This document shows positions 5,790 to 49,373 of a DNA stretch of 64,000 nt, one piece after another (the stretch's first letter is position 1; each line of letters begins with the position of its first letter). A model generated the notes under the pieces. The model searched no databases and was not told where the DNA came from. It worked only from the letters and a program-made list of their open reading frames with translations. The translations under genes were made by a program, and so were the position numbers. The DNA is from Escherichia phage SP27. The DNA is taken from the sequence record LC494302.1, one strand, 5' to 3'.

Positions 5790-5810
5790 AAAACATCCAA
5801 TAGGAGAAGT

Positions 5811-27743: not shown

Positions 27744-28052
27744 ATGTTTCAAACTAACACTCAAGGTTTTGTAATCATCGATTTGAATCAAAACAGCGGT
27801 TATTGGATGAAACCTACTGACGCATGTATGCAGTTTGATTTTTTAGGTTACAGGATTAGTGTAAGTACTGGTGCTTCTGTACTGAGAGGTGGTTGTATCG
27901 TTGAACATCTGGTAACTGATCCAGAAGGTCGTGAGTATGAAATCGCAGGTTCAGTACAAGATGCCATTATGTTTGTATGTCAGCGTGAAATGAATGGTTC
28001 GAATTCAAATGCACTGACTCATGCTCTTTCTCAAGAAGTGGAGGTTCGTTAA
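27744..28052 (+). CDS. hypothetical protein
   Basis: 102 aa, TGAGGAA RBS. Confidence 0.45.
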   Translation: MFQTNTQGFVIIDLNQNSGYWMKPTDACMQFDFLGYRISVSTGASVLRGGCIVEHLVTDPEGREYEIAGSVQDAIMFVCQREMNGSNSNALTHALSQEVEVR

Positions 28053-28297
28053 TGAAATACATTGTAGCAGTACTCGTCGCATTTCTACTCACTGCATGTG
28101 ATGCTTCTACCAAAGAACGTACAAGTGATTTTGTTCTACCTGCTGAATTAAAAGAAGCAGGGTGTAAGATTTATCGTATGCAACAAGATGGTGCTGGTGC
28201 AACTTTATACACTGTGTACTGTCCTAATGCAAATACAAGTACTGGATACACTAGCGGTAAAACACGAATCAACACTTCCGTAATTCATGGAGAATAA
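28052..28297 (+). CDS. putative lipoprotein
   Basis: Signal peptide with lipobox LLTAC (MKYIVAVLVAFLLTACDAS). Confidence 0.5.
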   Translation: MKYIVAVLVAFLLTACDASTKERTSDFVLPAELKEAGCKIYRMQQDGAGATLYTVYCPNANTSTGYTSGKTRINTSVIHGE

Positions 28298-28299
28298 CA

Positions 28300-28668
28300 A
28301 TGAGCCTTGATACAACACGTGCAGCAGATTTATTAACTCGTCTGAATGATGAAGAATATCTTGCTGAGATAAAGTACAAGCTTGACAAACTTGTTCGAAG
28401 TGCTGAAGTAATTGAAGTTGAAGGTCACTTACCGATGGATCAATACCATAGGTTCAAGGAAGATATGGTTTATTATCCTAATGAAATTTGGATTGAGTGG
28501 CAACATTGGACTAACAAAACTCTTCGCATTGAAGGGTATTGTGTGAAGTATGAAAGTTCACCTGGTGATGTTACAAAAACTCTATCAATTTGGTGTACAA
28601 AAACAAATGAACTCGTTGAGGTGAATTTGAATTATATGAATGGATTCCGTTGGGGTGATGTTAAATGA
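28300..28668 (+). CDS. hypothetical protein
   Basis: 122 aa ORF. Confidence 0.45.
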   Translation: MSLDTTRAADLLTRLNDEEYLAEIKYKLDKLVRSAEVIEVEGHLPMDQYHRFKEDMVYYPNEIWIEWQHWTNKTLRIEGYCVKYESSPGDVTKTLSIWCTKTNELVEVNLNYMNGFRWGDVK

Positions 28669-28940
28669 TTAAAAAACTCTTGACTGGAATCATTGTGTGC
28701 AGTACAATGTTTCTTACAGCATGTAATGATGACGGCAGGTTTAGTGCAAAAGACTTAGTTCGTCAGGATTGTACATTCACAGGTAAGTCTTTTATTAACG
28801 AGTATGAAATATGTACACAATCAGGTCGTATCTGTGGTGGTTGGGAAAAACGTCAGGAGCGATTGTATGTATATGAATGCCCTGGACATCACAACAAAGT
28901 ACTAAGCACACACAAACTTGTTTATGATAAGGTTGAATAA
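28665..28940 (+). CDS. putative lipoprotein
   Basis: MIKKLLTGIIVCSTMFLTACNDD signal plus lipobox. Confidence 0.5.
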   Translation: MIKKLLTGIIVCSTMFLTACNDDGRFSAKDLVRQDCTFTGKSFINEYEICTQSGRICGGWEKRQERLYVYECPGHHNKVLSTHKLVYDKVE

Positions 28941-30708: not shown

Positions 30709-31371
30709 ATGTTAGTTAATCTTAATTTCATCACTTCACCTGACTGGGCATTACGTGGAGTTTCTTTAAACTTCAAGGAAACTATGTTTGACTACATTGG
30801 TGAGTGTACATTGGTAAATGCAACTTTTGATCCAAATCATCCGTTTTGGGCTGAAATTCATGATCCAAATGTAAACAACAATACATCTGTTATGACTATT
30901 GTCCAGACTAAACATGCAGGTATCCTTGCAGGTTATCGACCTGCACATGCAATTGAACACTTCACTGATTACGATGTCGTGGATGAATACCCAATGATCC
31001 ATGAAGATGGAAGTCTATACACATCTGAAGACTTCCGTGCTATCTTTAATAGTACTGATGATATTCTACCAAGTGGACGTCCACGTCCTGAGTCTTATCT
31101 TATGCATCCATCTTATGGTGTAGCAGATACGCTTGAACAGATTATGAATAAGTACAAGAACCTAATTGAAGGTCCAGAAGAAATTGTCCTGTGCTATCAC
31201 CCAGTACTGAAGTCTGAACAACCAAAGGATGGTGGATGGCGTTGGCATAAGAATGGTGAGTATATCGGTACTAAACGAAGTAAAGAACGTTTTGAGTACT
31301 TGTGTGATGAGCCAGATGTTGATGTGGTTTTGTGTTATAATTTTATTAAGGTGAAAAAGAAATGTATCTAG
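30709..31371 (+). CDS. hypothetical protein
   Basis: Start at MLVNLNF after GAGGATA RBS; 220 aa. Confidence 0.5.
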   Translation: MLVNLNFITSPDWALRGVSLNFKETMFDYIGECTLVNATFDPNHPFWAEIHDPNVNNNTSVMTIVQTKHAGILAGYRPAHAIEHFTDYDVVDEYPMIHEDGSLYTSEDFRAIFNSTDDILPSGRPRPESYLMHPSYGVADTLEQIMNKYKNLIEGPEEIVLCYHPVLKSEQPKDGGWRWHKNGEYIGTKRSKERFEYLCDEPDVDVVLCYNFIKVKKKCI

Positions 31372-31604
31372 TACTAAGTTTTGTTGTTGCACTATTGTTT
31401 ATGTTCTATCCTACACTAGTGGCATTAGCCACTAGACGAACGATGGTAGATCTCACTACTGTATTCTTGCTAAACGTGGCATTAGTACTGGTGTCTATTA
31501 TCATTCCAGTGAGCTTTACAGTTATTGATATTATTTCGGTATTACTCTTCGTGTTAAGTTATCTTATGCTTATTGAAGAAACAAATGTTGACAAACGTTC
31601 GTAG
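31362..31604 (+). CDS. small membrane protein
   Basis: 80 aa, two TM helices. Confidence 0.4.
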   Translation: MYLVLSFVVALLFMFYPTLVALATRRTMVDLTTVFLLNVALVLVSIIIPVSFTVIDIISVLLFVLSYLMLIEETNVDKRS

Positions 31605-31615
31605 TACTGTATAAT
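31588..31615 (+). promoter_or_regulatory. sigma70-like early promoter
   Basis: TTGACA ... GTAGTACTG-TATAAT. Confidence 0.5.
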
Positions 31616-31661
31616 GGTTCCTGTAGTCTGAAACTTAACACTTAAACTTGAGGTAAAAAAT

Positions 31662-31988
31662 ATGCTATCAGTACTAATTTCAATTCCGTCTTTAATTCTG
31701 ATTTGGCTTCTGGTTTACGAATGCTTTATTACTGATGATAATGATAAAAAAGAGTTCTCTGAGTTGTTTATGCTTGATTCGCCGATTGTGCGTATTTTCT
31801 ATACAGTCGTTGTGGTTTCAGTAATTGTATGGGTTTTGAGTTTTATCTTCCCACTCGGTGCAGTAGTTAAAACTTTGGATTTAGTTGAGAACTTTGTTGC
31901 AATTATGTGGCTAATCAAAGCACTATTTGCAGGAAATGTTAAAATTTGGATTGATATTATCAAATTCAAGTTCACGAATAAGATGTAA
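31662..31988 (+). CDS. multi-TM membrane protein
   Basis: 108 aa hydrophobic, TGAGGTAAA RBS. Confidence 0.45.
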   Translation: MLSVLISIPSLILIWLLVYECFITDDNDKKEFSELFMLDSPIVRIFYTVVVVSVIVWVLSFIFPLGAVVKTLDLVENFVAIMWLIKALFAGNVKIWIDIIKFKFTNKM

Positions 31989-32066
31989 CAGTGAAAATAT
32001 CTCTATAGTATTAAATACTTCTGTACATATATATAGTACAGAAGTATTTCTCGTTAGAGGTTTGTT

Positions 32067-32426
32067 ATGAAGAGTTATATAAAATTAATAGCACTTGTGT
32101 GTGCATTATTTTCATGTTTTAGTTATGGTGCAGCAGCAGAAACATATTGTCGTAGTACTAAGGGAACGTGGCATGTATTGACTAACGACCCTAGAAATGG
32201 TAAAAATATAGTTGTTGATGGTGTGATTTATCGTTTTAAAGTAGAAAGTATTATCGGTAATAAAAAAATCTCGACTTATAGAGATGATTCTGGTACATTA
32301 GCAAACGTAATATTAATTGTAGACCCAAGAACTGGTAATGGTGATATCTATATAGTAATTTACTTGGACTCATCGGTACGCCGTGACCTAGATATAGATA
32401 AATTGAACTTACACTGTGAAATATAG
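32067..32426 (+). CDS. secreted protein (paralog of 32818)
   Basis: Signal peptide MKSYIKLIALVCALFSCFSYGAAAE; AGAGG RBS. Confidence 0.5.
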   Translation: MKSYIKLIALVCALFSCFSYGAAAETYCRSTKGTWHVLTNDPRNGKNIVVDGVIYRFKVESIIGNKKISTYRDDSGTLANVILIVDPRTGNGDIYIVIYLDSSVRRDLDIDKLNLHCEI

Positions 32427-32437
32427 GACTTAAAAAA

Positions 32438-32815
32438 ATGGTAAACACTATTTTACTTTTGTTGTTGAATATTCCAATTATTCTGTCTTTTTTAATTTCT
32501 ATTTTTATGGCAGGATATTGTTTAGTTGCAGTAATTCATTTCATTTTAACAAACAAATATGTCCTAATTTCTAAGCTTGATTCTATTTTTGCTTGCGATT
32601 CGATTGCTTATAACTTGTGGTTAATTTGTTCTTGCATTATGGGAGTAACTTTCCTTCTGTATGTATTTGATGTCCTTGACCAAAAGTTCGTATACATCAG
32701 TACTGGATTGGCTCTTTATCCTGCTACGTGGTACTTGATTTACGTTGGTGATATATGGTATAGTACTTATAAAGAATATCAGTACAAGAAATCACTTAAC
32801 GTTGGAGGAAAATAA
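32438..32815 (+). CDS. multi-TM membrane protein
   Basis: 125 aa hydrophobic. Confidence 0.45.
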   Translation: MVNTILLLLLNIPIILSFLISIFMAGYCLVAVIHFILTNKYVLISKLDSIFACDSIAYNLWLICSCIMGVTFLLYVFDVLDQKFVYISTGLALYPATWYLIYVGDIWYSTYKEYQYKKSLNVGGK

Positions 32816-32817
32816 TC

Positions 32818-33192
32818 ATGAAAATTATTTTATTTTTTGTATGTATGTTAATGTGTGGATTGTCATATGCTGAACCATTGGAAGGTTTAGTTTGTACAGA
32901 TGGTAATATTAAACATATCTATCAAGGTGATAGTGACGATCGAGATATTGTATATATTGATGGACAATCATATACGTTTGTTAAAGAGCATACAGTAGGC
33001 GACATTAGCTTCACTGAGTTTTCTAACGACACAGACCCTAACTTCTTAGCGTTTATTGAAGTAGATGTATATGAAGATAGTAATGGCACACAATATGCTA
33101 AATTAGTTATGATGCGTCGTGGTGCTAAAGAAACTAGTTTTGGTGGCTTGTGTAAATATAAGGATTGGTATTATGTTGATTTATCAAAGTGA
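32818..33192 (+). CDS. secreted protein (paralog of 32067)
   Basis: Signal peptide MKIILFFVCMLMCGLSYAEP; GGAGGAAAA RBS. Confidence 0.5.
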   Translation: MKIILFFVCMLMCGLSYAEPLEGLVCTDGNIKHIYQGDSDDRDIVYIDGQSYTFVKEHTVGDISFTEFSNDTDPNFLAFIEVDVYEDSNGTQYAKLVMMRRGAKETSFGGLCKYKDWYYVDLSK

Positions 33193-36839: not shown

Positions 36840-38117
36840 ATGAAATCTATGGAGAGAAATCAAATGCCAAGTAATTTTACTGATAAAAATGGTGGTAACA
36901 TGGCTGGTCACTCTGATAAATGGAGTGAACGCAACCGCCGTCCAAATAGTTATCAAGCAGGTCAAGGTTCACGTGGATCACGTAACCAAGGAACTGGTCT
37001 AGCTGGTAAAGCAAACGCAGAAGCAGGTGAAGTTAAGAGTACTGAGAACATGACTGAGCTAGAAAAGCTACGTTATGTTAATTCATTGGGACTTCTTAAT
37101 GCTACACAAAAACAACGCCTAGCTGATATGGAACGTGAAGAAAAAGAAAAGTCTGCTCCTGCGAAAGAAGAACCAAAACAAGAAGCACCAAAGGCGGTTA
37201 ACCCTGTCAAAGAACTGTCTGATAAGTTAGGTAAGATTTTTGCTAATAAACCACAACTTATCCAAGGTATTGTGAAAGAATTGCAATCTGTACCTAAAGA
37301 AGAATTAAAAGTCAAAGCACAAGCTGTGCTTGATGCAATGAGTGGAAATACCAGTACTGAACCAACTGAAGTATTCAGTACTATAATGCGTGCACTTGAA
37401 GGTACGCAACAAGGTGATGTGCCTGCACAAGAGGAAGTAAGTCTTGAAAGCGTACTTAAAACATTTGATAGTATTGGTAAAGAAGACCGTGCTAATGCTC
37501 AACAAGTTAAGAATGTACTAGCTAAGTTAGAAAACCGTCTGGAAGGTAAAGACGATAAGATTAAATTAGTATCTGATGCAGTTAACGATGCACTTAAATC
37601 TTATGTACAAGGTGAAAAGAGTCGTTTTGTAACTGCAATGGATGCTGCATTCAATACTATGAAAAAGTATGAAGCTGATCATGGTGAGAAGGTTACACGA
37701 GATGGTTATCTGATGCGTGATGATGAAGAAGGTGCAGTAGAACAGAACGATGTTCATTCAGACGAAGAAATTGATGACATGGAAGCTGAACTGTCACAAG
37801 ACCGCCAAATGACTGAAAAATCCCATAACGAACTACAGAAATTAATGCAATGGGTTGCAGATGTTGGTGAAAAAGCTGGTGCTGATAAGAAGAGTATAAA
37901 TCGAAATCTTAGTTGGATTAAAGATAAAGTTGGTAACAACGCTCGTAAACTACAAAAAGCGTGGACTGATGTAGTGAATGGTGCTGTTGATATTGATGTT
38001 GAATCCGGTGAGGCATATGATTATGCATTGACTACACTTGATGACTCTTTCCGTGATTACGAAAATGGAAATGTAACTCCTTGGGAAAAGGACATCATGA
38101 GCAAATACGGTAAATGA
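36840..38117 (+). CDS. hypothetical protein, K/E/Q-rich (SLGLL motif)
   Basis: 425 aa; low-complexity basic N-terminus, LRYVNSLGLLNATQ motif, charged helical body. Confidence 0.55.
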   Translation: MKSMERNQMPSNFTDKNGGNMAGHSDKWSERNRRPNSYQAGQGSRGSRNQGTGLAGKANAEAGEVKSTENMTELEKLRYVNSLGLLNATQKQRLADMEREEKEKSAPAKEEPKQEAPKAVNPVKELSDKLGKIFANKPQLIQGIVKELQSVPKEELKVKAQAVLDAMSGNTSTEPTEVFSTIMRALEGTQQGDVPAQEEVSLESVLKTFDSIGKEDRANAQQVKNVLAKLENRLEGKDDKIKLVSDAVNDALKSYVQGEKSRFVTAMDAAFNTMKKYEADHGEKVTRDGYLMRDDEEGAVEQNDVHSDEEIDDMEAELSQDRQMTEKSHNELQKLMQWVADVGEKAGADKKSINRNLSWIKDKVGNNARKLQKAWTDVVNGAVDIDVESGEAYDYALTTLDDSFRDYENGNVTPWEKDIMSKYGK

Positions 38118-39207: not shown

Positions 39208-39244
39208 AAAAGGGTTGACTTCGGTCAGCCTTTTTTGTTATGAT
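39208..39244 (+). promoter_or_regulatory. PeSL-like terminator/promoter hybrid
   Basis: AAAAGGGTTGAC-ttcg-GTCAGCCTTTTTT; TTGACT-18-TATGAT. Confidence 0.6.
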
Positions 39245-39272: not shown

Positions 39273-39914
39273 ATGACTAAGCAAGAAATATTCAAAACTT
39301 TAATTGACATTTTGCGTCCATCAAAAACTCGTTGTGCGATGGAGTTTGATATTCCTTATGCTGAACGCGTAATCTTTCCACAAGTTAAAGCTGCTGGACT
39401 TACTTTGCTTGGAATGGGGATGTACTCTGTAGTAGTTGAACATAAAAACTATCCTGGACGAGCATTTAAAGTAACCACTTCACGCTGGGATGGTTTTCGT
39501 GCTTATGCAAAGTACTGCATTGAAAACGCAGGAACCAAGTTTCTTCCAGTGATCTACAGTGCCAACGAACAAGGAAACTTTGGATGGTATGAGATGGACA
39601 AGTACTATCCTATAATTAAACAAAAAAATAATTATGATGACTTTGTTAGTACTAAAATTGGAGATTTATATTCTTATGCACATGCTGGTCAGTACGCTAC
39701 TTCAGTGAATGATATGCGTGGAAATTCTGAAGAGATTGCTATTGCGACGGTCGCTGCTAACATCATGAAAGAGTTTCACGGGCGTTTTGTACCAGACATT
39801 CATTCAAGTAATGTAATGATGGATAAAGATGGGAATGTATTCATTACTGATCCTCTTTCGTGTGATGTGCGTAGAGAAATACCAATTACTGAAGAAGATC
39901 CAGTTTTTTATTGA
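39273..39914 (+). CDS. atypical kinase-like protein (tentative)
   Basis: Start at MTKQEIF after GAGGATAAAG; DIHSSNVMMDKDGNVFITDP resembles HxDxxxxN catalytic loop and metal-binding D of APH/choline-kinase-like kinases. Confidence 0.4.
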   Translation: MTKQEIFKTLIDILRPSKTRCAMEFDIPYAERVIFPQVKAAGLTLLGMGMYSVVVEHKNYPGRAFKVTTSRWDGFRAYAKYCIENAGTKFLPVIYSANEQGNFGWYEMDKYYPIIKQKNNYDDFVSTKIGDLYSYAHAGQYATSVNDMRGNSEEIAIATVAANIMKEFHGRFVPDIHSSNVMMDKDGNVFITDPLSCDVRREIPITEEDPVFY

Positions 39915-39975: not shown

Positions 39976-40257
39976 ATGCGTTCATTTGAAAACTTAATAG
40001 GTAAGCATCTTTTATCTGAAATTGATGCAGACGTTAAAGAATTATCCAAATCAAAAAGTTACATTCATTTGGATGAACTATTTGTTAAGTACGGTGAGAT
40101 TGGTTTTAAGTCATTATTTGTTTTTACTATGAAAGTACATAGTTTAAAGTACTTCGATTTGAGTGCTAAAGATGGTGAACCGAATCTATATTACATGTAT
40201 TACCTTAAGAACAAAGATGAAGCTAATACATTACTCTCTGAATATATATTGGGGTAA
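39976..40257 (+). CDS. hypothetical protein
   Basis: 93 aa, AAAGGATAAA RBS. Confidence 0.4.
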   Translation: MRSFENLIGKHLLSEIDADVKELSKSKSYIHLDELFVKYGEIGFKSLFVFTMKVHSLKYFDLSAKDGEPNLYYMYYLKNKDEANTLLSEYILG

Positions 40258-40259
40258 AA

Positions 40260-40598
40260 ATGGAACAATATTTTGAATTAATAAACAAAGTATCATTTTA
40301 TGTAGTATCTTTGGTTTGGGTGTATTATATGTTTTGCTACATTATTGCATTCTTCCGATACACTACTTTATATGAACGTATCTACTATGATGCCCCAATT
40401 TCATTCTTGATGTTTTGTGCATGTACGTGGGGAATATTAGAAGTACTGATATGTGGGTATAGTACTGATGAATTAAATCTGGTATCGGTCTTGACTGGGT
40501 TTTCATTTGTTGTTATGATAGCTGCCGTTCCAGTATGGTTGTTCTTTGGACTAGTTCATCGCATTGATATATGGCGTTCTAATATCCCTGAAAAGTAA
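40260..40598 (+). CDS. small multi-TM protein, array A member 1
   Basis: 112 aa, 3-4 TM helices, basic tail RSNIPEK. Confidence 0.5.
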   Translation: MEQYFELINKVSFYVVSLVWVYYMFCYIIAFFRYTTLYERIYYDAPISFLMFCACTWGILEVLICGYSTDELNLVSVLTGFSFVVMIAAVPVWLFFGLVHRIDIWRSNIPEK

Positions 40599-40607
40599 GG
40601 ATTGGTA

Positions 40608-40949
40608 ATGATTTATTACACTAACATGTTTGCCTATGCTGTTGCTTGCATTTACATTGTTTACTTCTTATTTGGTGGAGTACTGTGCTTCTTTAAGTAC
40701 AAAACGTTGTTCAACCGAATGTACCCAAATCATCCAATTGTAGTTGTACTTTTGATTCTTTCAGTTTCTCAAATAATCGTTGAAACTACAATGGGTATCA
40801 GTAGTGTACATTATAGTTTTGGTACTATAGTAATTATTACTATGCTTATTGCATACATTTTAGTACTTGGATATGGTATCTTTGGTAATATTGGTATGAA
40901 AATGTATCATCGAATTAAAACATTACGTGATAATCTACCGGAGCGTTGA
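40608..40949 (+). CDS. small multi-TM protein, array A member 2
   Basis: Paralog; tail LRDNLPER. Confidence 0.5.
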   Translation: MIYYTNMFAYAVACIYIVYFLFGGVLCFFKYKTLFNRMYPNHPIVVVLLILSVSQIIVETTMGISSVHYSFGTIVIITMLIAYILVLGYGIFGNIGMKMYHRIKTLRDNLPER

Positions 40950-40950
40950 T

Positions 40951-41295
40951 ATGTATAATTTGAACCTAATCTCATATATTATAACAACACTGTTTACATT
41001 CTATGCCTTTGTTGGTATAATCCTACTGTACTTTAAATTTTATAAAGTGTTTAACCGTTTCTATCCTTCAATGGAGAATGAGTTTTTCTTTGTGTTGTAC
41101 GTATGTTACACATTCATGGCTACATGTTTCACTGTAGTCGATGGTGTCATCGGCATTAAAACTGCTGCACCAAATGGTAGTACGCTGGTTGCATTTATTC
41201 TTACCGGATTCCTTGCAACTTATATTGCCTTCATTGCAACATGGTCAGTGGTTGAATTTCTCTTGCGACTACGAAAGAATATGCCGAATCGATAG
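40951..41295 (+). CDS. small multi-TM protein, array A member 3
   Basis: Paralog; tail LRKNMPNR; TGATATG coupling. Confidence 0.5.
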   Translation: MYNLNLISYIITTLFTFYAFVGIILLYFKFYKVFNRFYPSMENEFFFVLYVCYTFMATCFTVVDGVIGIKTAAPNGSTLVAFILTGFLATYIAFIATWSVVEFLLRLRKNMPNR

Positions 41296-41304
41296 GAGAC
41301 ATAT

Positions 41305-41559
41305 ATGTTTGCATTGCGTAACAAAAACACTAAAGAAATATTATGTTTAGATACCGTATGGGATTGTGCGGGATCAACTACAGTTCTTGAAGAAGGAACT
41401 GGATATTGCGTGTTTGTTGTACATGATAGGAATGAACTCGAATTATTACTTGCTGAGTTCAATGCTGGTGGTAATCCTAACAGTACTGAATACCCTGAGA
41501 TTATCAATCCAGCACCACCAGGCTCTTATGAAATTCTACAACTGTGGGAGTTGAAGTAA
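41305..41559 (+). CDS. hypothetical protein
   Basis: 84 aa, AGGAGACA RBS. Confidence 0.45.
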   Translation: MFALRNKNTKEILCLDTVWDCAGSTTVLEEGTGYCVFVVHDRNELELLLAEFNAGGNPNSTEYPEIINPAPPGSYEILQLWELK

Positions 41560-41939
41560 TGCGTCAAATGCACAAAGTAACCGAGCTAAACAAGCGTCTG
41601 GTTAAACAATCAATGTTCGAGGATAAAGAGTCTTATTATAACTTTAAACGTGCAGTAGAGGCTGCTATCCACATTCAGAAGCTTAAAGAACGTGGTTGTA
41701 TTATTCTGGAAAATGGTTCGGAAGTTGTAACGGATGACTTTAGTGTAGCGTTTGATGTTTCACCTGACGGGACGCTATCAATGCCCCGCTTAGGAACTGG
41801 AAACATGACTGTTTGGGTTGGCTTCACTATGGGGAATGTACCTGGTACTGTGTACGTAGATGATGCGGAATTGAAAGACAGTTTCAAAAACTTATCGTAC
41901 CTTGAACCACAATACGCACATGAAATGAATTTATTTTGA
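41559..41939 (+). CDS. hypothetical protein
   Basis: Start at MRQMH, TAATG-coupled. Confidence 0.45.
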   Translation: MRQMHKVTELNKRLVKQSMFEDKESYYNFKRAVEAAIHIQKLKERGCIILENGSEVVTDDFSVAFDVSPDGTLSMPRLGTGNMTVWVGFTMGNVPGTVYVDDAELKDSFKNLSYLEPQYAHEMNLF

Positions 41940-41940
41940 G

Positions 41941-41969
41941 TTGACAAACACATTCAGTACTGTATAATG
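41941..41969 (+). promoter_or_regulatory. sigma70-like early promoter with CAGTACTG spacer
   Basis: TTGACA-aacacatTCAGTACTG-TATAAT. Confidence 0.55.
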
Positions 41970-42015
41970 TTTATCAAGGGGATGAACTTCTCATCCCCAC
42001 AATCGAGGAATTGTC

Positions 42016-42570
42016 ATGATTACTTTTAAGAAAACTGCTAACCACATCCATGAAATCTACATTAACGGTCACAAAGCTGGCCTTCTTCGTTTACTCGCCC
42101 ATCACCCTGATGCTACCGTATCTGATAATGAACCTAAAGATTGGCGTGTCTTTTTCTTTGGAAAGTACAGTGATTTTCAAGTATCAAACCTGAAGAACAT
42201 TCGTTCAGTATGCACGTTAACTGAAATTAAAGAAAAGTTAGCACAAGCATTGAAAACTAATCCAGATGGTGTTCTTCCACCTGATAACTTTGTAGAGAAA
42301 GGTTATGCCTTAGCTCATTTCAAAGATGGTACTATTCAATCTATCAGTACTGAATATGAATATCATTGGACTGAGTACTTCACTTATGGTTCGAGTAATA
42401 CATTGATGGATTCACGTAGTAAATTGGAAGAAGTACTGACTCGTATGAATGAACGCGAGCGTCAGTTATATGACAAACCAGAAATGTGGAGTTCAACTTA
42501 CATTGACCGTATTGACTATGTTATTATGACTCCAATCTTTGACACTGCTTACTATGATTCTTTGAAATAA
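42016..42570 (+). CDS. hypothetical protein
   Basis: 184 aa, GAGGAA RBS. Confidence 0.5.
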   Translation: MITFKKTANHIHEIYINGHKAGLLRLLAHHPDATVSDNEPKDWRVFFFGKYSDFQVSNLKNIRSVCTLTEIKEKLAQALKTNPDGVLPPDNFVEKGYALAHFKDGTIQSISTEYEYHWTEYFTYGSSNTLMDSRSKLEEVLTRMNERERQLYDKPEMWSSTYIDRIDYVIMTPIFDTAYYDSLK

Positions 42571-42581
42571 GGATAACTTAT

Positions 42582-42758
42582 ATGAAACTACGTACTCGTA
42601 ATCGACTGATGGATGCACTGTACCATGAACAGCTTTCACTGAATGAAGTGAAGCGTCAGTTAATGTACACATATCAGTTTCCCGCTCGCATTGCAAAACA
42701 ACGTGCTAAAGAATTGCTGAAAGAAGCAATAGAGTACTGGGAATCTGATTCGTACTAA
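42582..42758 (+). CDS. hypothetical small protein
   Basis: 58 aa basic ORF, AAGGATAA RBS. Confidence 0.3.
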   Translation: MKLRTRNRLMDALYHEQLSLNEVKRQLMYTYQFPARIAKQRAKELLKEAIEYWESDSY

Positions 42759-42797
42759 TATTACGTGATATGTCACGTTAATTAAGTGAGGCGATAA

Positions 42798-43049
42798 ATG
42801 AAAATATTATTAGTTCTAATACTACTAATAGTTTTACCATTTACTTTAGTATCCCCTGGACTTGCATGGAATGTATTTGTGTACTTAGTATGTACTATTG
42901 TAGTAAATGGTATCTTGTTCTTAGTTCTATTCATAAATGGAATAGGACACGGTGGAGGATGGACCAGTACTGCTGATATCGTACATAAAACCACTATGTC
43001 TTTATTTGTAATGTGGAATTTGTTCTGGACTTGGTTTGTGTTCTTCTAA
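42798..43049 (+). CDS. small membrane protein
   Basis: 83 aa, three hydrophobic helices, GTGAGGCG RBS. Confidence 0.4.
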   Translation: MKILLVLILLIVLPFTLVSPGLAWNVFVYLVCTIVVNGILFLVLFINGIGHGGGWTSTADIVHKTTMSLFVMWNLFWTWFVFF

Positions 43050-43057
43050 TTAAAAAT

Positions 43058-43429
43058 ATGAATATAGATTTGAAAGGTGCAACCCGAACTGTTATCCTCA
43101 TTGGGGAATACGCTATCAAGATTCCAACCTTCAAAAGCTGGAAGTTATTCCTAACTGGAATGATAGCTAACCTCAATGAACGTTCATGGATGCAGTACTC
43201 CAATCGTAGTGATAGTGGTATCTGCCCTACTTTGTGGTCATCATGTACAGGACTAGTAACTGTACAGAAACGTTGTAAGCCAGTTCAACATAGGGGTTTA
43301 TTTTGGGTGGAGTTGTGTGCTTTAGCATTGAATTCAGAGTTAAGTACTGACTTCTTTTATTCAGATGCGAAGCCAGAAAACTTTGGTTATCTGAATGGTA
43401 AGTTAGTTAAACTTGATTATGGAGATTAA
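43058..43429 (+). CDS. truncated eukaryotic-like protein-kinase-fold protein
   Basis: GEYAIKIP (VAIK-like), SDAKPENFG (HRDxKPEN-like), KLVKLDYG (DFG-like); ORF stops two residues after DYG. Confidence 0.5.
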   Translation: MNIDLKGATRTVILIGEYAIKIPTFKSWKLFLTGMIANLNERSWMQYSNRSDSGICPTLWSSCTGLVTVQKRCKPVQHRGLFWVELCALALNSELSTDFFYSDAKPENFGYLNGKLVKLDYGD

Positions 43430-43430
43430 G

Positions 43431-43700
43431 ATGTACGCACTGTATAATAAAGAAAAGAAACGATTTGCTAAGGTTGAAATTTCGATTGATACCTTTGATA
43501 TGTTGGAGTACTGTATTGTGACGGACCTATATGCTAACTTGTATTACGTTCTTGATGACGTATCAGTACTGCAACGATTGCTTGAGAATTCCAAAAGTCA
43601 ATGCCAGGGCATCCATGATGGTTCATCTTATGAAACACCTGAGTGTTCCTACGGCTATCTGGACGGGTATGAGATTGTGAAGTTGGGGATTGTTGAATAA
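43431..43700 (+). CDS. hypothetical protein
   Basis: 89 aa, follows kinase-like ORF. Confidence 0.4.
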   Translation: MYALYNKEKKRFAKVEISIDTFDMLEYCIVTDLYANLYYVLDDVSVLQRLLENSKSQCQGIHDGSSYETPECSYGYLDGYEIVKLGIVE

Positions 43701-43703
43701 AGA

Positions 43704-43739
43704 AAAGGGTTGACTACGGTCAGCCCTTTTTGCTATAAT
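43704..43739 (+). promoter_or_regulatory. PeSL-like terminator/promoter hybrid
   Basis: AAAAGGGTTGAC-tacg-GTCAGCCCTTTTT; TTGACT-18-TATAAT. Confidence 0.65.
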
Positions 43740-43767
43740 CATTTCATCGAAACGAGAGGATGAATAC

Positions 43768-44283
43768 ATGACACGCATTAACTTAGTACACGTTAAAGAA
43801 CTTGCTGACCAACATCTGATGGCTGAATATCGTGAACTCCCACGTGTATTTGGTGCTGTACAAAAACACGTTCAAGCACGTAAGCGTGTACGTGATTTCA
43901 AAATTAACAGTACTTATCTGTTAGGTTCAGGTCATGTGACATTCTTTTACGACAAGTTGCTGTACTTACAGAAGCGTCATATCGATATTGTTAACGAATG
44001 TTTGCGTCGTGGTATGAAGATTCAAAACACTGAAGTAAACGACATTAGCGGCTTCCCTGCTGAGTTTTGTAATGACTACGTACCAACGGAGTCAGAGATT
44101 AAAATGTCTCGTGATCGTTTGATTGAGAAGCTCCAGATGAAGCCTACGTGGTATAAGTTTACTGATGTTGAATGTCCACAGTACGTTAAAGATATGCAGA
44201 ACGTAAGTAGTAAGAACGAATCTAGTACTGATATGTTCGACGAAATTGAAGAACAAATCAAAGATGAAATGAATAATTATTAA
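43768..44283 (+). CDS. denV: endonuclease V (pyrimidine-dimer DNA glycosylase/AP lyase)
   Basis: [50 protein letters not shown] matches T4 endonuclease V as I recall it over most of its length. Confidence 0.8.
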
Positions 44284-44287
44284 AGGA

Positions 44288-44304
44288 AAGGGTTGACTTC
44301 GGTT
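44288..44304 (+). repeat. truncated PeSL remnant (5' arm only)
   Basis: AAGGGTTGACTTCGGTT then unrelated sequence. Confidence 0.45.
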
Positions 44305-44321
44305 ACACAAAGGAACATAAC

Positions 44322-44516
44322 ATGTTATTAGTATATTCAACGCGTTTCTGGATTTCTTTTATTGTACTATCGCTAATCGGCTTCGGTTTGAGTATACTCT
44401 TTTCGTGGGATGAATTGGGTACATGGTATTATGAAGTCCCGTGGTACATGAAGATAGCTCCTTGTTATGCGGCATTGTTCGTGTCATTCCTTATTGTTGT
44501 CTTCAGCGAGGATTAG
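44322..44516 (+). CDS. small membrane protein
   Basis: 64 aa; PWYMK motif shared with array B member at 46911. Confidence 0.4.
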   Translation: MLLVYSTRFWISFIVLSLIGFGLSILFSWDELGTWYYEVPWYMKIAPCYAALFVSFLIVVFSED

Positions 44517-44622
44517 TTGATGTAGTATGTGCTACACCAAAGTATTTGGATATTTTAGATATAAACATTGACACCTGTTATATCTTTCTGTATTATGTAC
44601 ATCACCAAATGAGGAATACAAC

Positions 44623-44982
44623 ATGGCATCTTTAAGTGAAATCGCAGAATACAACCCACTAACAATCTCAACAATTCAACGTACAAAAACTTTTTATTTC
44701 CGTCCTGCTGATGGATGGAAACGTGGAATGAATGGTGACTATCGAGTACTGGAAGATTCACTAATCGAGCGTATCAACTCTGAACTACAGAAGTATGAAG
44801 GTGTTAAAGTTGTGCGTTCAACTTCTCGTTATTTTGAGTACTACATTGAGTCTTCAACTGTAAATGAAAACTCATCATTATCGGTGGACAACACTGATAT
44901 TCTTCGTAATGCAGTTGGTATGTTATGCAACATTGCAGAAGAAATGGGATTAACTATTAGTACTATGAGTGAGTTGGAATAA
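44623..44982 (+). CDS. hypothetical protein
   Basis: 119 aa, GAGGAATA RBS. Confidence 0.5.
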   Translation: MASLSEIAEYNPLTISTIQRTKTFYFRPADGWKRGMNGDYRVLEDSLIERINSELQKYEGVKVVRSTSRYFEYYIESSTVNENSSLSVDNTDILRNAVGMLCNIAEEMGLTISTMSELE

Positions 44983-44984
44983 CA

Positions 44985-45020
44985 TAAAGGGTTGACTTCG
45001 GTCAGCCCTTTTTGCTATAA
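44985..45020 (+). promoter_or_regulatory. PeSL-like terminator/promoter hybrid
   Basis: AAAGGGTTGAC-ttcg-GTCAGCCCTTTTT; TTGACT-18-TATAAT. Confidence 0.65.
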
Positions 45021-45049
45021 TTATTTCATCAACTGAAGAGGGTAAAGAA

Positions 45050-45820
45050 ATGACCAGAGAAGCACGCAGCATTCAAATTCAGAAAAACTTCAACTCCATG
45101 ATGGTTGCTCTTGAGTGTTTGCTCGATGATAGCAGTACTGTAAAAAGTATGGTTGTCAGTGGTGCTCCTGGTGTTGGTAAGACTTACACCTTGTCCCAAC
45201 GTCTCCAGAAGGCTCATGACGCAGCAGAATGGAACGTAGCTACTATCAGTGGTAAGATGACTACACTGGCTCTGTACGAAGTTCTGTACAAGAATCGTCA
45301 CAGCACCAACGTGTTAGTACTGGATGATATGGACAGCATCTTTGATTCTGAAGACGGTATGAACCTGCTCAAAGCTGTTTTGGATAGTGGTAAGCGTACT
45401 GTATCTTATATGACTAGCTCTAAGTACTTGAGCACTAACGGCATTCCTAATAGCTTTGATTTTAATGGTCGCATCGTATTCATTACTAACAAAGATTTAG
45501 CGTTAGATGCTAAAGCTAAAACTAAAATGTCTGCTCATTATGCTGCTCTTATGTCTCGTTCTGTGTACGTGGATTTACAGATTCAGACTAAAAGTGATAT
45601 CATGATTCATATTGAAAATGTAATGACTAAGACTAATATCCTTGCATCTAAAGGTGTTAACAGTAACGGTAGTAAAGCAATTCTGAACTGGATGTTAAAA
45701 CATGAAGATAATCTTCGTGCACCATCCCTGCGTATGCCTTTGTTGATTTCAGCAGTATATAACAACAATCCGTATGATTGGGAAGAACAATGTGAAAACT
45801 TGTTCCTTGAGAAAATCTAA
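45050..45820 (+). CDS. P-loop NTPase (AAA+-like)
   Basis: Walker A GAPGVGKT, Walker B-like VLVLDDMD. Confidence 0.55.
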   Translation: MTREARSIQIQKNFNSMMVALECLLDDSSTVKSMVVSGAPGVGKTYTLSQRLQKAHDAAEWNVATISGKMTTLALYEVLYKNRHSTNVLVLDDMDSIFDSEDGMNLLKAVLDSGKRTVSYMTSSKYLSTNGIPNSFDFNGRIVFITNKDLALDAKAKTKMSAHYAALMSRSVYVDLQIQTKSDIMIHIENVMTKTNILASKGVNSNGSKAILNWMLKHEDNLRAPSLRMPLLISAVYNNNPYDWEEQCENLFLEKI

Positions 45821-45829
45821 TTACATATG

Positions 45830-45861
45830 TTGACAGTACTACCATAGTGTAGTACTATAAC
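45830..45861 (+). promoter_or_regulatory. promoter-like element
   Basis: TTGACAGTACT ... GTAGTACTATAAC; -10 ambiguous. Confidence 0.35.
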
Positions 45862-45887
45862 TTAATATTCACCACCGGAGATACGAT

Positions 45888-46229
45888 ATGCTTGAGTTTT
45901 TTAATTCAGATACAATGCTTGGTATCACGCTAATTTACATGTTTGTATTCTTGTTTTATCATTCAATTGTAATTAGTCTTTGGTATTTTAAAAGGAAAGT
46001 TGTTTTTAAATTGTATTCGTATGATAATGTACTCTTAGTAGTATATAGCATTATACAAGGTGGGTTTATTTTATTTGGTGTGATGACATATGTGATTTAC
46101 ATGTTACAAATTGATAATACACCACACATTACACAATATGTTGTGTTTTCAGGACTAATCGTCTGGTTATTGGTGTGTACTCTGTATTTTATTATTAAAG
46201 CTCGTGATAACTTTAAATGGGGATTCTAA
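45888..46229 (+). CDS. small multi-TM protein, array B member 1
   Basis: MLEFFNSDTMLGITLIYMF; 113 aa. Confidence 0.5.
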   Translation: MLEFFNSDTMLGITLIYMFVFLFYHSIVISLWYFKRKVVFKLYSYDNVLLVVYSIIQGGFILFGVMTYVIYMLQIDNTPHITQYVVFSGLIVWLLVCTLYFIIKARDNFKWGF

Positions 46230-46567
46230 TGTTAGAATTTTTTAAATCAGATACAATGATTAGTATTACTTTGATTTATCTGTTTGGTTTTTTCTTTTAT
46301 CATGCACTAGTTGTAGTACTATGGTATTTTAAAAAGAAAATTGTTTTTAAACTGTATCCAGTGAGGAATTCATCACTAGTTCTTTACACACTTGTTCAAG
46401 GTTTGTTTGCAATTGTTGGTCTTATGGCACACTTAATTTATTGTGCCAATCCTCACTTGAACTCAATCTCACAATATATTGTATTCTTTGGGTTGTTCAT
46501 TTGGTTAGTTGTATACTTAATCCATCTCATTATTCATGGTAGAGATAAAATTCGCGGAGACTTCTAA
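46229..46567 (+). CDS. small multi-TM protein, array B member 2
   Basis: MLEFFKSDTMISITLIYLF, clear paralog; TAATG coupling. Confidence 0.5.
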   Translation: MLEFFKSDTMISITLIYLFGFFFYHALVVVLWYFKKKIVFKLYPVRNSSLVLYTLVQGLFAIVGLMAHLIYCANPHLNSISQYIVFFGLFIWLVVYLIHLIIHGRDKIRGDF

Positions 46568-46914
46568 TGTTTGAAGCTTATCTTGAGTTTTTAAGGAGTA
46601 GTCCAGTTGCACATTCACTTGCAGGGATTATTCTAACAACTTATGTATCATTTTGGGTAGTTATGTTTCTAGGATGGTATTTTAAACGACAATTCTATAA
46701 ACGTAATGGTGAAGATTTTATGAATTCTGTCATTAATCAATCGTTGTTTGCATCAACATTGATTGCATGTATTGTAGCAACACTCACAGGAAAGGTACTA
46801 CCAGCTTTTTCCGCAGTTTACGGCACACTTGGGATGATATGTTTAACTTTTATATTGACCATTAAAATTTGTTGTGTTATGATTGAACTTCGAAATAAGA
46901 TACCGGAGGAATGA
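46567..46914 (+). CDS. small multi-TM protein, array B member 3
   Basis: Hydrophobic, tail ELRNKIPEE. Confidence 0.5.
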   Translation: MFEAYLEFLRSSPVAHSLAGIILTTYVSFWVVMFLGWYFKRQFYKRNGEDFMNSVINQSLFASTLIACIVATLTGKVLPAFSAVYGTLGMICLTFILTIKICCVMIELRNKIPEE

Positions 46915-47249
46915 TGGAGTACTTTATTGATTTACTGCCGTGGTATATGAAAGTTAGTACCATGTACTATATTATTAGTGCTGGATTCTACTTTCTGATG
47001 TGGTTCTTTAAACGACCAATTTCAGTATTCATCGCTGATAACATGTTGCAATTAAAATTACACGCATGGTTTGGTATGGCGATGATTATGCCTATTATTC
47101 ACTACTCAATGATTAGTAGAGGTTTCCGTTCTAATGGTGAACCAATTGTATTAGTATTCTATTGGGGTTCAACTATTGCATATGTAAGTTTGTTGTTGTT
47201 CCCAGTCGTTCATAAGTTACGTGCTAAAGTTCCTGATGCGAGGTACTAA
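46911..47249 (+). CDS. small multi-TM protein, array B member 4
   Basis: Tail KLRAKVPDARY. Confidence 0.5.
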   Translation: MMEYFIDLLPWYMKVSTMYYIISAGFYFLMWFFKRPISVFIADNMLQLKLHAWFGMAMIMPIIHYSMISRGFRSNGEPIVLVFYWGSTIAYVSLLLFPVVHKLRAKVPDARY

Positions 47250-47563
47250 TGGATATAGTAACATTGATTTACACGTTGTATTCATTCTATTTCATTATGT
47301 GTTGGGTTGGATTTTTATTTGTACTCAAGATGTTTGATTATGTTGAAAAACAGATAAAAGAATTTTGTATTCCTTTTATCGGTTCAACCATTATTAGTGT
47401 TTCTTGTGTGTATTTTTTGGTTTTTGATCCACCAGATAACACTGCAATGATTGACTTGATGTTACTACCAACAACTGTTACTTTTTTATGTAGTCTGATG
47501 CCGCCGATTAGCCGTGGACTAACAGAATTTAGACGCAATCAAAAGCGTAAACGAGGGATGTAA
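47249..47563 (+). CDS. small multi-TM protein, array B member 5
   Basis: Basic tail RRNQKRKRGM. Confidence 0.5.
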   Translation: MDIVTLIYTLYSFYFIMCWVGFLFVLKMFDYVEKQIKEFCIPFIGSTIISVSCVYFLVFDPPDNTAMIDLMLLPTTVTFLCSLMPPISRGLTEFRRNQKRKRGM

Positions 47564-47931
47564 TGGAAATTGCTCTTATTATCTTAACTGCTATGCTGTT
47601 TATTAGTACTGTGGTTATAATTGGTAAATTCTTTTGTGTATCATTTTTAGAAACGGTATACGATGAAATTGCTGATGATTATGAATTACAAGCCGGATTT
47701 TTCATTACGTATTGGCTTAGTTTATTTTGTCTAGTCATTGCTTGGATTTTACATATCTTTAAATGGGGTATGGTAGACGGTGATCCTATTATGGCAATTA
47801 TTGTTCTAGTGTTTGGTATCCTTGGTGGTGCAGTGCATAATCTAATGGTTATCTGGCAAACTGTTCAATATGTTTTGGTTCCCTATTTCGAAAAGATGCA
47901 CAGTACAATTAAAAAACGTAAACGAGGTTAG
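47563..47931 (+). CDS. small multi-TM protein, array B member 6
   Basis: Basic tail KKRKRG. Confidence 0.5.
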   Translation: MEIALIILTAMLFISTVVIIGKFFCVSFLETVYDEIADDYELQAGFFITYWLSLFCLVIAWILHIFKWGMVDGDPIMAIIVLVFGILGGAVHNLMVIWQTVQYVLVPYFEKMHSTIKKRKRG

Positions 47932-47932
47932 T

Positions 47933-48295
47933 ATGAACGGGATAGAATTATCTTTCGTTGGTCAATTACTAGTAATGGCGTATACATTTATCTTCTCACT
48001 GAATGCATTCGTGTGCATTGGGAAGTACTTCCATAAGCGACCATTATCAAATATATATGATGTAATCCAAAAGAGATATAGTCCAGCATATACTGTGTTG
48101 GGTACAGTATTCAATTTTGGTTTTATTGTATTAATAATTGGACTGTTCACATCCTCTTTGAATACAATAACCTTCGGTCTTATGATATGTTCATTGGTAT
48201 TAGCCGTAATTATATGTTGTTTAGTACTGCACCTTGTGGTACTATTGTATATAAAGATCTCTGAAATCCACCAACGTTTGGGTATGAGGAAATAA
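47933..48295 (+). CDS. small multi-TM protein, array B member 7
   Basis: Start at MNGIELSF after GAGGT. Confidence 0.45.
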   Translation: MNGIELSFVGQLLVMAYTFIFSLNAFVCIGKYFHKRPLSNIYDVIQKRYSPAYTVLGTVFNFGFIVLIIGLFTSSLNTITFGLMICSLVLAVIICCLVLHLVVLLYIKISEIHQRLGMRK

Positions 48296-48296
48296 T

Positions 48297-48668
48297 ATGA
48301 GTTACCGTGAGATATTTTCCATTATTTCAATTATTATGTTCAGTACTGGAACACTGGTATGGTTATTATACTTCTTCTGTATTAATCCAGTGTATAATAT
48401 GTTATGTAATATTAAATCAAGTGCCGGATATATCACTTTTATGGTCTTTATGGGATATTATTGTCTAAGCATTTTAGGTGTTGTTTTGGTTGTTATATTT
48501 GATGTGGGACCAAATAGTGATGGTATGGAAATACATGAATTAATAACCATGTTTGGATGTATGATACCAACAGCACTACTGTTTGTAGCTACTGGTAGTG
48601 GATTGATAAAATTATATAATTATTTAAAATCCATTCATAATTCCATTCATAATAAGCGTATGTCATAA
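48297..48668 (+). CDS. small multi-TM protein, array B member 8
   Basis: 123 aa, tail NKRMS. Confidence 0.5.
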   Translation: MSYREIFSIISIIMFSTGTLVWLLYFFCINPVYNMLCNIKSSAGYITFMVFMGYYCLSILGVVLVVIFDVGPNSDGMEIHELITMFGCMIPTALLFVATGSGLIKLYNYLKSIHNSIHNKRMS

Positions 48669-48698
48669 TAAAAAATCCAGTACTATTAAGTACTGGAT
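48667..48698 (-). terminator. hairpin with T-run on minus strand
   Basis: TCCAGTACT-attaa-GTACTGGA; T6 follows only on the minus-strand reading. Confidence 0.4.
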
Positions 48699-48710
48699 GT
48701 ATAAGGAGTT

Positions 48711-49373
48711 ATGATGAAATCAAAATTAGGTTTGTTTTATAAAAACTATTTTGTTAAACAACGTAAATTTATAAAAAAATATTTCTCTGGCGAGAAGTCT
48801 AGTCCTATAATCTTTAAAAGACCAAGTTATAATACTTACTTAGCTGGTGCTAAACAGTCTAAGAAATTTATTACTCTTTTACATAAAAACAAAATTAAAG
48901 CTTCTTATGTTGAAACGAGAAGAAACTCATCAATAACTCCTGGTGATTTTATTGAGTACGGATGTTTCAATATTAAGTACAATGATAATACATACTTTAT
49001 GGATATTGATTGTAATACATCCAATCTTTTTAACATTGTAGTAAATCCATTAAAACAATATAATGTTTATGGTGATTCTATTATCAAATTAATCAAAAAC
49101 AAAGATAGCTTTGATTTTGAAATAAATGTTTTAGATGATAATTTTGACGAAGTACCAGTAAACCCTGAAATCTGTGATATTTTAAACAGTTTAAAAGGTA
49201 GTACCTACACTATATCATCTGATTTAATGTTTCAGTACTCATTAATCCATAAAGATATTGAAAAGTATATTGAATGCTCCAGAATTTTGAATTTTCTCTA
49301 TGATGAATTTAAAAAGAGTTCTAAAATAACTGCATACACTTTGTACAATATTCCTAAAATGGTGAATCTTTAA
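48711..49373 (+). CDS. hypothetical protein (last plus-strand gene, convergent with array)
   Basis: 220 aa, AAGGAG RBS; 3' end overlaps degenerate array member. Confidence 0.5.
   Translation: MMKSKLGLFYKNYFVKQRKFIKKYFSGEKSSPIIFKRPSYNTYLAGAKQSKKFITLLHKNKIKASYVETRRNSSITPGDFIEYGCFNIKYNDNTYFMDIDCNTSNLFNIVVNPLKQYNVYGDSIIKLIKNKDSFDFEINVLDDNFDEVPVNPEICDILNSLKGSTYTISSDLMFQYSLIHKDIEKYIECSRILNFLYDEFKKSSKITAYTLYNIPKMVNL

Follow-up and report, generated by a model that had tools for sequence, protein, structure and literature searches.

What eleven small membrane proteins, encoded in two tandem arrays, might do for a jumbo phage is the question raised by positions 40260-48668 of the DNA analysed here, a stretch of 64,000 nucleotides from Escherichia phage SP27 (record LC494302.1; hereafter the window). 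The original prediction, made from the sequence alone, had described small multi-pass membrane proteins with basic C-terminal tails, encoded in tightly packed arrays of three and eight genes; this description is correct, and all eleven open reading frames (ORFs), numbered m1 to m11 in the following, were found in their expected places on the plus strand. Positions 40000-49000 are 98% identical, over their full length, to Escherichia phages G17 and Sharanji, and 93-98% identical to UB, SHEFM2K, phAPEC6, slurp01, 121Q and PBECO4; judged by sequence, the source of the window is an Asteriusvirus, G17, 121Q and their kin being Rak2-like jumbo myoviruses of about 350 kb, and T4-like genes (denV, nrdC.10) are present in it. 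The eleven genes correspond to 121Q gp207-209 plus gp224-232 and bear only 'hypothetical protein' labels in G17 and 121Q; searches of the literature on Asteriusvirus, RaK2, NrdC.10 and jumbo-phage paralogues brought up no work devoted to them. The firm part of the answer is that they form a lineage-restricted superfamily of three-pass inner-membrane proteins, encoded in early-type operons and maintained by purifying selection, seven paralogue classes of which have been kept across genera; what they do can be said with less assurance.

All eleven proteins have three predicted transmembrane (TM) segments. Array A comprises m1 (40260-40598; 112 amino acids (aa), tail NIPEK, phrog_19285), m2 (40602-40949; tail NLPER, 115 aa from the TTG at 40602 or 113 aa from the ATG at 40608 annotated in G17) and m3 (40951-41295; 114 aa, tail NMPNR). 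Array B comprises m4 (45888-46229; 113 aa, phrog_19454), m5 (46229-46567; 112 aa, orthologous to RaK2 ORF311 and Turkey5 B1), m6 (46567-46914; 115 aa, tail KIPEE, orthologous to RaK2 ORF309/310 and Turkey5 B2), m7 (46911-47249; 111-112 aa, tail KVPDARY, orthologous to RaK2 ORF312 at 37-38% identity), m8 (47249-47563; 104 aa, tail NQKRKRGM, orthologous to RaK2 ORF313), m9 (47563-47931; 122 aa, orthologous to RaK2 ORF314 and Munch gp530), m10 (47933-48295; 120 aa, orthologous to Turkey5 B7 and, weakly, to RaK2 ORF316) and m11 (48297-48668; 123 aa, orthologous to RaK2 ORF315 at 39% identity, phrog_27618). The lengths given for m3, m5 and m10 are those from corrected starts: the longest-ORF starts of these three genes overlap the upstream gene, and the starts annotated in G17 and ph0011 (40951, 46229 and 47933, respectively) are more likely. 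Of the size range first proposed, 104-141 aa, the lower bound therefore stands and the upper does not, the corrected range being 104-123 aa. Similarly, the proline-containing tails held to be frequent are found in m1, m2, m3, m6 and m7, the remaining six tails being basic and devoid of proline (NFKWGF, KIRGDF, NQKRKRGM, IKKRKRG, RLGMRK, HNKRMS). The proposal that m4 and m5 are duplicates is borne out by their 51% identity (E 7e-42), the duplication being recent.

With regard to their similarity to one another, BLASTP links only some pairs (m1-m2-m3, m4-m5, m11-m1 and m3 with m4/5), and PHROGs splits the members over at least seven families, all of 'unknown function' (19285, 19454, 19046, 27396, 33258, 26405 and 27618, matched over full length at E 1e-50 to 1e-70), m10 falling in none of them; the whole-family alignment contains no conserved 7-mer. 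The family clustering suggested as a check was carried out on 94 members, drawn from two database searches as well as from the window and related phages; they were sorted into orthogroups, and each orthogroup in succession was left out of the profile and then scored against it. Held-out true members scored 17-53 bits, against at most 14.6 bits for reversed sequences, at most 8.2 for shuffled ones and at most 13.3 for the highest-scoring among 977 other ORFs taken from a complete related genome; by this profile test, all eleven belong to one superfamily, which the databases list as unrelated families.

The distribution of the superfamily is narrow. A word-indexed search of 5.8 billion proteins returned 32 close relatives, and a HMMER profile search of 1.84 billion cluster representatives gave 46 matches, nearly all aligned almost end to end; 44 are 99-128 aa long, and the other two are fragments of 56 and 99 aa. 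All the sources traced proved to be either Rak2-like jumbo phages themselves or phage contigs of roughly 350 kb embedded in bacterial or other assemblies; among them are Asteriusvirus, A4/JNE01/Turkey5, Munch/SE_PL, fENko-Kae01, the RaK2 group and a 362-kb contig in GCA_000227035. A scan of IMG/VR for the subfamily of m9 found 121Q- and RaK2-like contigs only, and a metagenome scan added nothing new. The complete Asteriusvirus genome OR844650 (351,992 bp) encodes exactly eleven members, and none beyond the eleven was found in the window or in the complete related genome. Outside the superfamily, nothing meaningful was found in Pfam (m1-m9 and m11, at E up to 1) or NCBIfam (all eleven), and a sequence profile search of the PDB gave noise only, for instance V-ATPase subunit e at E 0.02.

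The number of hydrophobic helices had been put at three to four per protein; three Kyte-Doolittle peaks are present in all eleven members, those of m7 being the weakest, and the fourth helix has to be given up. The check for a consistent membrane topology, based on hydropathy of the eleven members and on the count of lysine plus arginine (K+R) in 94 sequences, gave three helices in an N-out/C-in arrangement: mean K+R per segment is 0.38 in the N-terminal tail, 3.34 in loop 1, 0.50 in loop 2 and 4.45 in the C-terminal tail, and because of this distribution the positive-inside rule places the N-terminus and loop 2 in the periplasm, and loop 1 and the C-terminal tail in the cytoplasm. AlphaFold2 models of m6 (predicted local distance difference test (pLDDT) 79, predicted template-modelling score (pTM) 0.60) and of m9 (pLDDT 90, pTM 0.76) agree with each other, both being predicted to consist of TM1, a short helix in loop 1, TM2, and a TM3 that runs on into the C-terminal helix. 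No meaningful structural neighbours were found for the two models, Foldseek matches in the PDB having E above 3 and those in BFVD being weak and limited to 'putative membrane proteins' of CBB and GAP32.

The only invariant column in an alignment of 70 sequences holds the F of W-[YF]-F-[KR], a motif located where TM1 ends on the cytoplasmic side, and a C-terminal motif [RH]-x-[KN]-[IL], in some sequences with P-[DE], recurs; in the m9 class, G-K-F-F-C is invariant as well. The superfamily can thus be defined by a length of 99-128 aa, three TM segments, the W-[YF]-F-[KR] motif and the C-terminal [RH]-x-[KN]-[IL] helix, a definition that covers 11/11 members of the window. Its second defining trait is the genomic setting: in the window, ph0011, Turkey5, RaK2, Munch and L019, all of them Rak2-like, the members are encoded in tandem arrays, either within the early-type operon after the NrdC.10-like ATPase gene or close to the T7-like kinase gene. 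Identity among orthologues is 0.38-0.40 in the N-terminal tail, TM1, loop 1 and the C-terminal tail, and 0.23-0.30 in TM2, loop 2 and TM3. Motifs common to all paralogues lie on the cytoplasmic face, and the diversity is concentrated in TM2, TM3 and the periplasmic loop between them, which suggests that one and the same cytoplasmic interface is paired with differing specificities within the membrane or the periplasm.

Could such hydrophobic reading frames be chance products, or duplicates without function on their way to decay? Reciprocal best hits define seven array-B orthogroups (m4/5, m6, m7, m8, m9, m10 and m11) common to Asteriusvirus, Turkey5/JNE01 and Alcyoneusvirus and kept between the genera of E. 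coli and Klebsiella phages, and in each lineage a duplication of its own brings array B to eight genes: m4/m5 in the window, ORF309/310 (m6-type) in RaK2, where the order of the array is slightly permuted, and B4/B5 (m8-type) in Turkey5. The layout of three plus eight genes is retained in ph0011, which differs by about 13% in DNA sequence; array A is present in Turkey5, broken by a soluble gene, and in L019, a distant contig, two copies stand close to the kinase. One set of 32 Escherichia/Salmonella records contains m2, m5 and m7 alike, and the array genes thus behave as core genes. Compared with ph0011, the ratio of nonsynonymous to synonymous substitution rates (dN/dS) is 0.13-0.33 for all eleven members and 0.03-0.19 for their neighbours, so that the members are constrained coding genes, and gene-wide positive selection, considered as a further possibility, is rejected by a dN/dS of at most 0.33. 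The preserved length of the orthologues across genera, a Shine-Dalgarno sequence of its own for each gene and a coding sequence annotated in every related record speak against decay in the same way. The decay reading can appeal to truncated or altered members in several Salmonella phage records (SD-1_S14, SD-6_S16 and SD-15_S21), namely P0028 (99 aa), P0031 (74 aa) and P0036 (101 aa), and these may reflect either real decay on a Salmonella host or an assembly error; as an account of the superfamily, chance or decay is effectively refuted by the conservation.

The genes of array B are packed to the nucleotide, five of the seven junctions being 1-nt overlaps of stop and start codon (TAATG four times, TGATG once) and the other two 1-nt gaps; in array A the intergenic gaps are 1-3 nt. 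This packing fits the translational coupling that had been proposed, a coupling still to be regarded as putative. Every downstream gene has its own GAGG/GGAG Shine-Dalgarno sequence, located inside the final 2-4 codons of the preceding gene (ends of m4-m10, 46200-48300), as in CCG GAG GAA TGA TG and CGA GGG ATG TAA TG; since these sites overlap the C-terminal codons, the extreme C-terminal residues are under a double constraint, as protein and as ribosome-binding site.

Both arrays belong to operons headed by the same type of element. A 24-nt hairpin, GGTTGACTWCGGTCAGCCYTTTTT, ending in a T-run, has seven copies on the plus strand of the window (33359, 36602, 36785, 38128, 39213, 43708 and 44990) against 0 expected in shuffled sequences, and a degenerate copy lies at about 44290. 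The stem holds a -35 element, TTGACT (TTGAC), followed in most copies by a correctly spaced TATAAT, TATGAT or TATTAT; having the -35 in the stem and the -10 after the T-run, each copy can serve both as terminator and as sigma-70-type promoter, while the annotation of G17 records these hairpins as terminators only. The array-A operon starts at the cassette 39213-39244 on the plus strand (GGTTGACTTCGGTCAGCC-TTTTTT-...TATGAT) and continues, on the same strand, with a T7 gp0.7-like protein kinase gene (39273-39914), a gene for a soluble protein of 93 aa directly upstream of m1 (39976-40257; phrog_37917, conserved as A1 in Turkey5), m1-m3 and further genes up to 43700. The kinase is annotated in G17 as 'putative protein kinase, PHA00451', and its homologue in L019 carries PF27024 Phage_T7_kinase; a local Pfam scan of the window kinase gave no match.

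The array-B operon lies between a second cassette (44990-45021, plus strand; TTGACT-18-TATAAT with TG) and a hairpin at 48675-48698, and consists of the gene for a P-loop ATPase of 256 aa (45050-45820, plus strand; phrog_1250), a homologue of T4 NrdC.10, followed by m4-m11. The cassette is found directly upstream of the ATPase gene in six lineages (window, ph0011, Turkey5, RaK2, Munch and L019), and a hairpin follows the last array gene in all five lineages in which that end has been sequenced; eight members each stand behind the same ATPase in Turkey5 and RaK2, and about four in Munch. The hairpin, to which no strand is assigned here, has a 10-bp stem and is annotated as a terminator in G17, its T-run being on the minus strand in the window. 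Before m4, and in Escherichia lineages only, there is an internal promoter-like site on the plus strand (TTGACA-17-TACTAT, 45830-45858), whose spacer contains the inverted repeat AGTACTAC-catagt-GTAGTACT; the arms of the terminal hairpin, CCAGTACT/AGTACTGG, have the same AGTACT core, and the shared inverted repeats may be the operator of some regulator. Inside the corresponding operon of RaK2, between ORF308 and ORF309, an unannotated ORF of 42 aa (MKPEQWIIDDMRAMRK..., about 5153-5281) was noticed, which is homologous to Munch gp532 (5689-5817) and has no counterpart in the window.

The timing of expression has been considered for the relative CBB, in which RpoD-like promoters cluster in a region of short ORFs that includes a phage sigma factor; this region has been interpreted as one of early, host-takeover genes, and TATAAATA-like motifs have been assigned to late genes (PMC5259590). 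The window encodes a sigma-70-family factor of its own at 23924-24889 (phrog_351, E 2e-60), the counterpart of CBB_513, which was placed in the presumed early region (PMC5259590). Neither array has the T4-type late promoter TATAAATA in its vicinity. One of the two such motifs in the window, at 36815, lies about 20 nt upstream of a 425-aa gene (36840-38117) annotated as 'structural protein' in ph0011; its product is probably the counterpart of the phAPEC6 virion protein gp035c, and it would be a late gene inside an otherwise early-type region. A virion role for the array proteins themselves was considered and rejected, the virion proteome of phAPEC6 having no product between gp010 and gp035c.

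The setting of the arrays bears directly on the comparison with holins made in the original prediction. Class I holins have three TM segments, an N-out/C-in orientation and a charged C-terminal tail, and with about 105-120 aa and the predicted topology the array proteins do resemble them (lambda S105 being the type example), so that the likeness in size and topology stands. In addition, an m2 orthologue (UniRef A0AAU7PHD9) is named 'Holin', a database label without reference, and the papers on Rak2-like genomes that were searched for the term identify no holin gene, the sole mention being a generic remark in the discussion of UE-S1. That the proteins actually are holins or antiholins timing lysis is, however, very improbable, and the identification is not supported: there is no match to holin models in Pfam (m1-m9 and m11), NCBIfam or PHROGs, and no sequence or profile similarity; the operons, whose timing is deduced from their promoters, are of the sigma-70 early type and not of the late type usual for holins, which mostly stand in a lysis cassette beside the endolysin; the SAR-type endolysin of 121Q is gp532, far from gp207-232, and SAR endolysins normally pair with small pinholins of two helices; and eleven copies in seven or more conserved classes are without precedent among holins. 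A dual start of the lambda S type, in which a basic residue separates the two start codons, is absent too: m5 (MGILM...) and m10 do have alternative starts further upstream, but these fall within the preceding gene, and in the case of m5 no basic residue intervenes.

A different explanation is that the paralogues are subunits of one hetero-oligomeric inner-membrane complex (a channel, a scaffold or an anchoring platform), perhaps organised or powered by the NrdC.10-like ATPase. The joint retention of the seven orthogroups in Asteriusvirus, Turkey5/JNE01 and Alcyoneusvirus, with one extra duplicate per lineage, speaks in favour of such a complex, as do the cytoplasmic-face motifs common to all paralogues and the spacing of the array-B junctions, seven of seven of which fall between -1 and +1 nt, as they should if the proteins were co-produced stoichiometrically; moreover, ATPase and array form one operon with the same cassette and terminator in the window, ph0011, Turkey5, RaK2 and Munch, and in L019, too, this cassette precedes the ATPase. 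On the other side, unrelated neighbouring genes are tightly packed as well, array A stands apart behind the kinase, and Munch has only about four members. The family of the ATPase is widespread (1309 phage records; the protein encoded at 45050-45820 is mislabelled 'thioredoxin' or 'FleQ' in many records), and no array follows it in T4, PA5oct or BUDD, so that an obligatory link between ATPase and array is not borne out. T4 NrdC.10, which is 38% identical to the window ATPase over 93% of its length, differs precisely in having no three-helix array after it; the T4 genes downstream of it, NrdC.7, NrdC.8 and NrdC.9, were tried as distant relatives and rejected (E at least 0.99), the E of NrdC.7, a predicted membrane protein, against the family profile being 0.99. 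The window ATPase is 100% identical to that of JP4, 70% to RaK2, 59% to ph0011 and 57% to Turkey5, whereas the window membrane proteins are 73-88% identical to those of ph0011 and 22-39% to those of RaK2; because the ATPase, a mosaic allele, is nearer to RaK2 and the membrane genes follow the expected phylogeny, the two have discordant histories. A complex is regarded as the main rival of the reading favoured here, as a possible but rather doubtful explanation. A more specific form of it, in which the seven array-B classes, perhaps together with array A, would build one membrane machine peculiar to Rak2-like phages, assembled minutes into infection and serviced by the ATPase, for instance a channel or platform for the long cycle, is distinctly unlikely.

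In yet another proposal, the members would be an immunity or anti-defence battery, each directed against its own membrane-acting toxin, which it would neutralise through helix-helix binding inside the bilayer; the targets could be the pore formers of abortive infection, TM effectors of CBASS/Pycsar/retron-type systems, or pore-forming colicins. E1-type colicin immunity proteins, of about 113 aa, have three TM segments and recognise their target helices in the membrane, and tandem arrays are common among immunity genes; the array proteins recall the E1 type in size and in their layout of three helices. The orientation of ImmE1 is reported to be opposite to that predicted for the family; E1-type proteins are encoded by bacterial or plasmid genes, and similarity to them was not detected by Pfam or by profile search. 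Such a battery would account for the tandem diversification, for TM2, loop 2 and TM3 being the most variable parts, for a protein evolution faster than that of the neighbours (22-39% identity between genera against 70% for the ATPase, with a somewhat higher dN/dS), and for an operon context that suggests early expression. Against it, the 32 Escherichia/Salmonella records show no presence/absence variation for the three members searched, the same orthogroups persist in phages of E. coli and in those of Klebsiella, hosts with differing defence repertoires, gene-wide positive selection is missing, and no Pfam or PADLOC immunity model is matched, the single PADLOC match, of one member to PycTM at E 0.029, being noise. 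This proposal is considered unlikely.

The reading favoured here, with a confidence somewhat short of even, is that the array products are early envelope-conditioning proteins, which would use their common cytoplasmic face and their diversified membrane and periplasmic regions for exclusion, for protection of the membrane or for takeover. Host RNA polymerase would transcribe the array genes in the first minutes of infection, and coupled translation would yield roughly equal amounts of the proteins, which would insert into the host inner membrane; there, as diversified and non-redundant modules, they would condition the envelope for the long jumbo-phage cycle, possibly by excluding secondary infection, by protecting membrane integrity or by taking over functions of the host membrane, and they would have no role in the timing of lysis. 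T4 makes two small proteins of the inner membrane, Imm (83 aa, two helices) and Sp, early in infection, and both act on the envelope. The array proteins, from a T4-related myovirus, are likewise small and predicted to lie in the inner membrane, and they are presumably early; unlike them, Imm and Sp are single-copy and unrelated in sequence. The likeness to superinfection-exclusion or immunity proteins noted at the outset is therefore plausible by analogy, the array products being small, presumably early inner-membrane proteins, and does not extend to homology, none to Imm, Sp, Sie or Cor being detected in Pfam, PHROG or NCBIfam.

Several points weigh against envelope conditioning. Genes for exclusion or anti-defence are as a rule accessory, with a rapid turnover; the array genes are core genes with conserved orthogroups, and a structural role, or one in a complex, fits this at least equally well. 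Sequence, profile and fold searches found no homology link to any function. The topology is a prediction whose whole basis is hydropathy and the positive-inside rule, 'early' is deduced from the promoter consensus and from the published interpretation for the relative CBB, the conservation of the cytoplasmic side is only mildly higher (0.38-0.40 versus 0.23-0.30), and the C-terminal motif partly overlaps the Shine-Dalgarno sequence of the next gene.

The number of copies, which had been called unusual, is a weaker argument than it seemed. Tandem families of 25 ORFs of 60-95 aa, of 16 RCC1-like proteins and of seven proteins of about 150 aa are present in OR844650, so that eleven paralogues are not exceptional for this type of genome. 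The RCC1-like 'DNA condensation' family directly adjoins array B, occupying 49850-64000 on the minus strand; several of its members are phAPEC6 virion proteins, and in OR844650 its 16 members lie at 327-345 kb. The window also contains further small membrane or exported ORFs (21488-22332; 31362-33192; 28052-28297; 28665-28940; 42798-43049; 44322-44516) that are unrelated to the superfamily by profile. Among them are an overlapping multi-TM pair (140 and 141 aa), two lipobox-like proteins, a TM cluster (80, 108 and 125 aa) interleaved with two signal-peptide proteins that are apparently paralogous, and two mini-proteins of two TM segments between the arrays; those at 21488-22332, 31362-32815, 42798-43049 and 44322-44516 were tried as candidate members and rejected, having no profile match. 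The stretch between the arrays (43700-45050) is a hot spot of insertion and deletion when the window is compared with G17 and ph0011: G17 has an additional 1.4 kb (two genes) ahead of the ATPase, in ph0011 the place is taken by about 4 kb of other genes, one of them for a Dam-like methyltransferase, and HNH or homing endonucleases occupy this place in other relatives.

Rak2-like jumbo phages (121Q, PBECO4, G17, RaK2, Munch and CBB) are being isolated in growing numbers and have been proposed for therapy, and more than 80% of their genes are without an assigned function. Eleven 'hypothetical proteins' from at least seven database families now become one superfamily with a predicted topology, motifs, an operon setting and a map of orthologues, a testable entry into the early action of these phages on the inner membrane that also bears on the role of the widespread T4 NrdC.10-type ATPase. 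If the proteins neither act against other phages or membrane-acting defences nor form a complex, the family would be one more fast-evolving tandem expansion among several in these genomes. If the proteins exclude other phages or block membrane-acting defences, they would be relevant to the design of phage cocktails; if they form a complex, they would represent a new, previously unrecognised membrane machine encoded by a phage, and not a collection of independent small effectors. The interest of the family lies in its membrane nature and in its conservation as a set.

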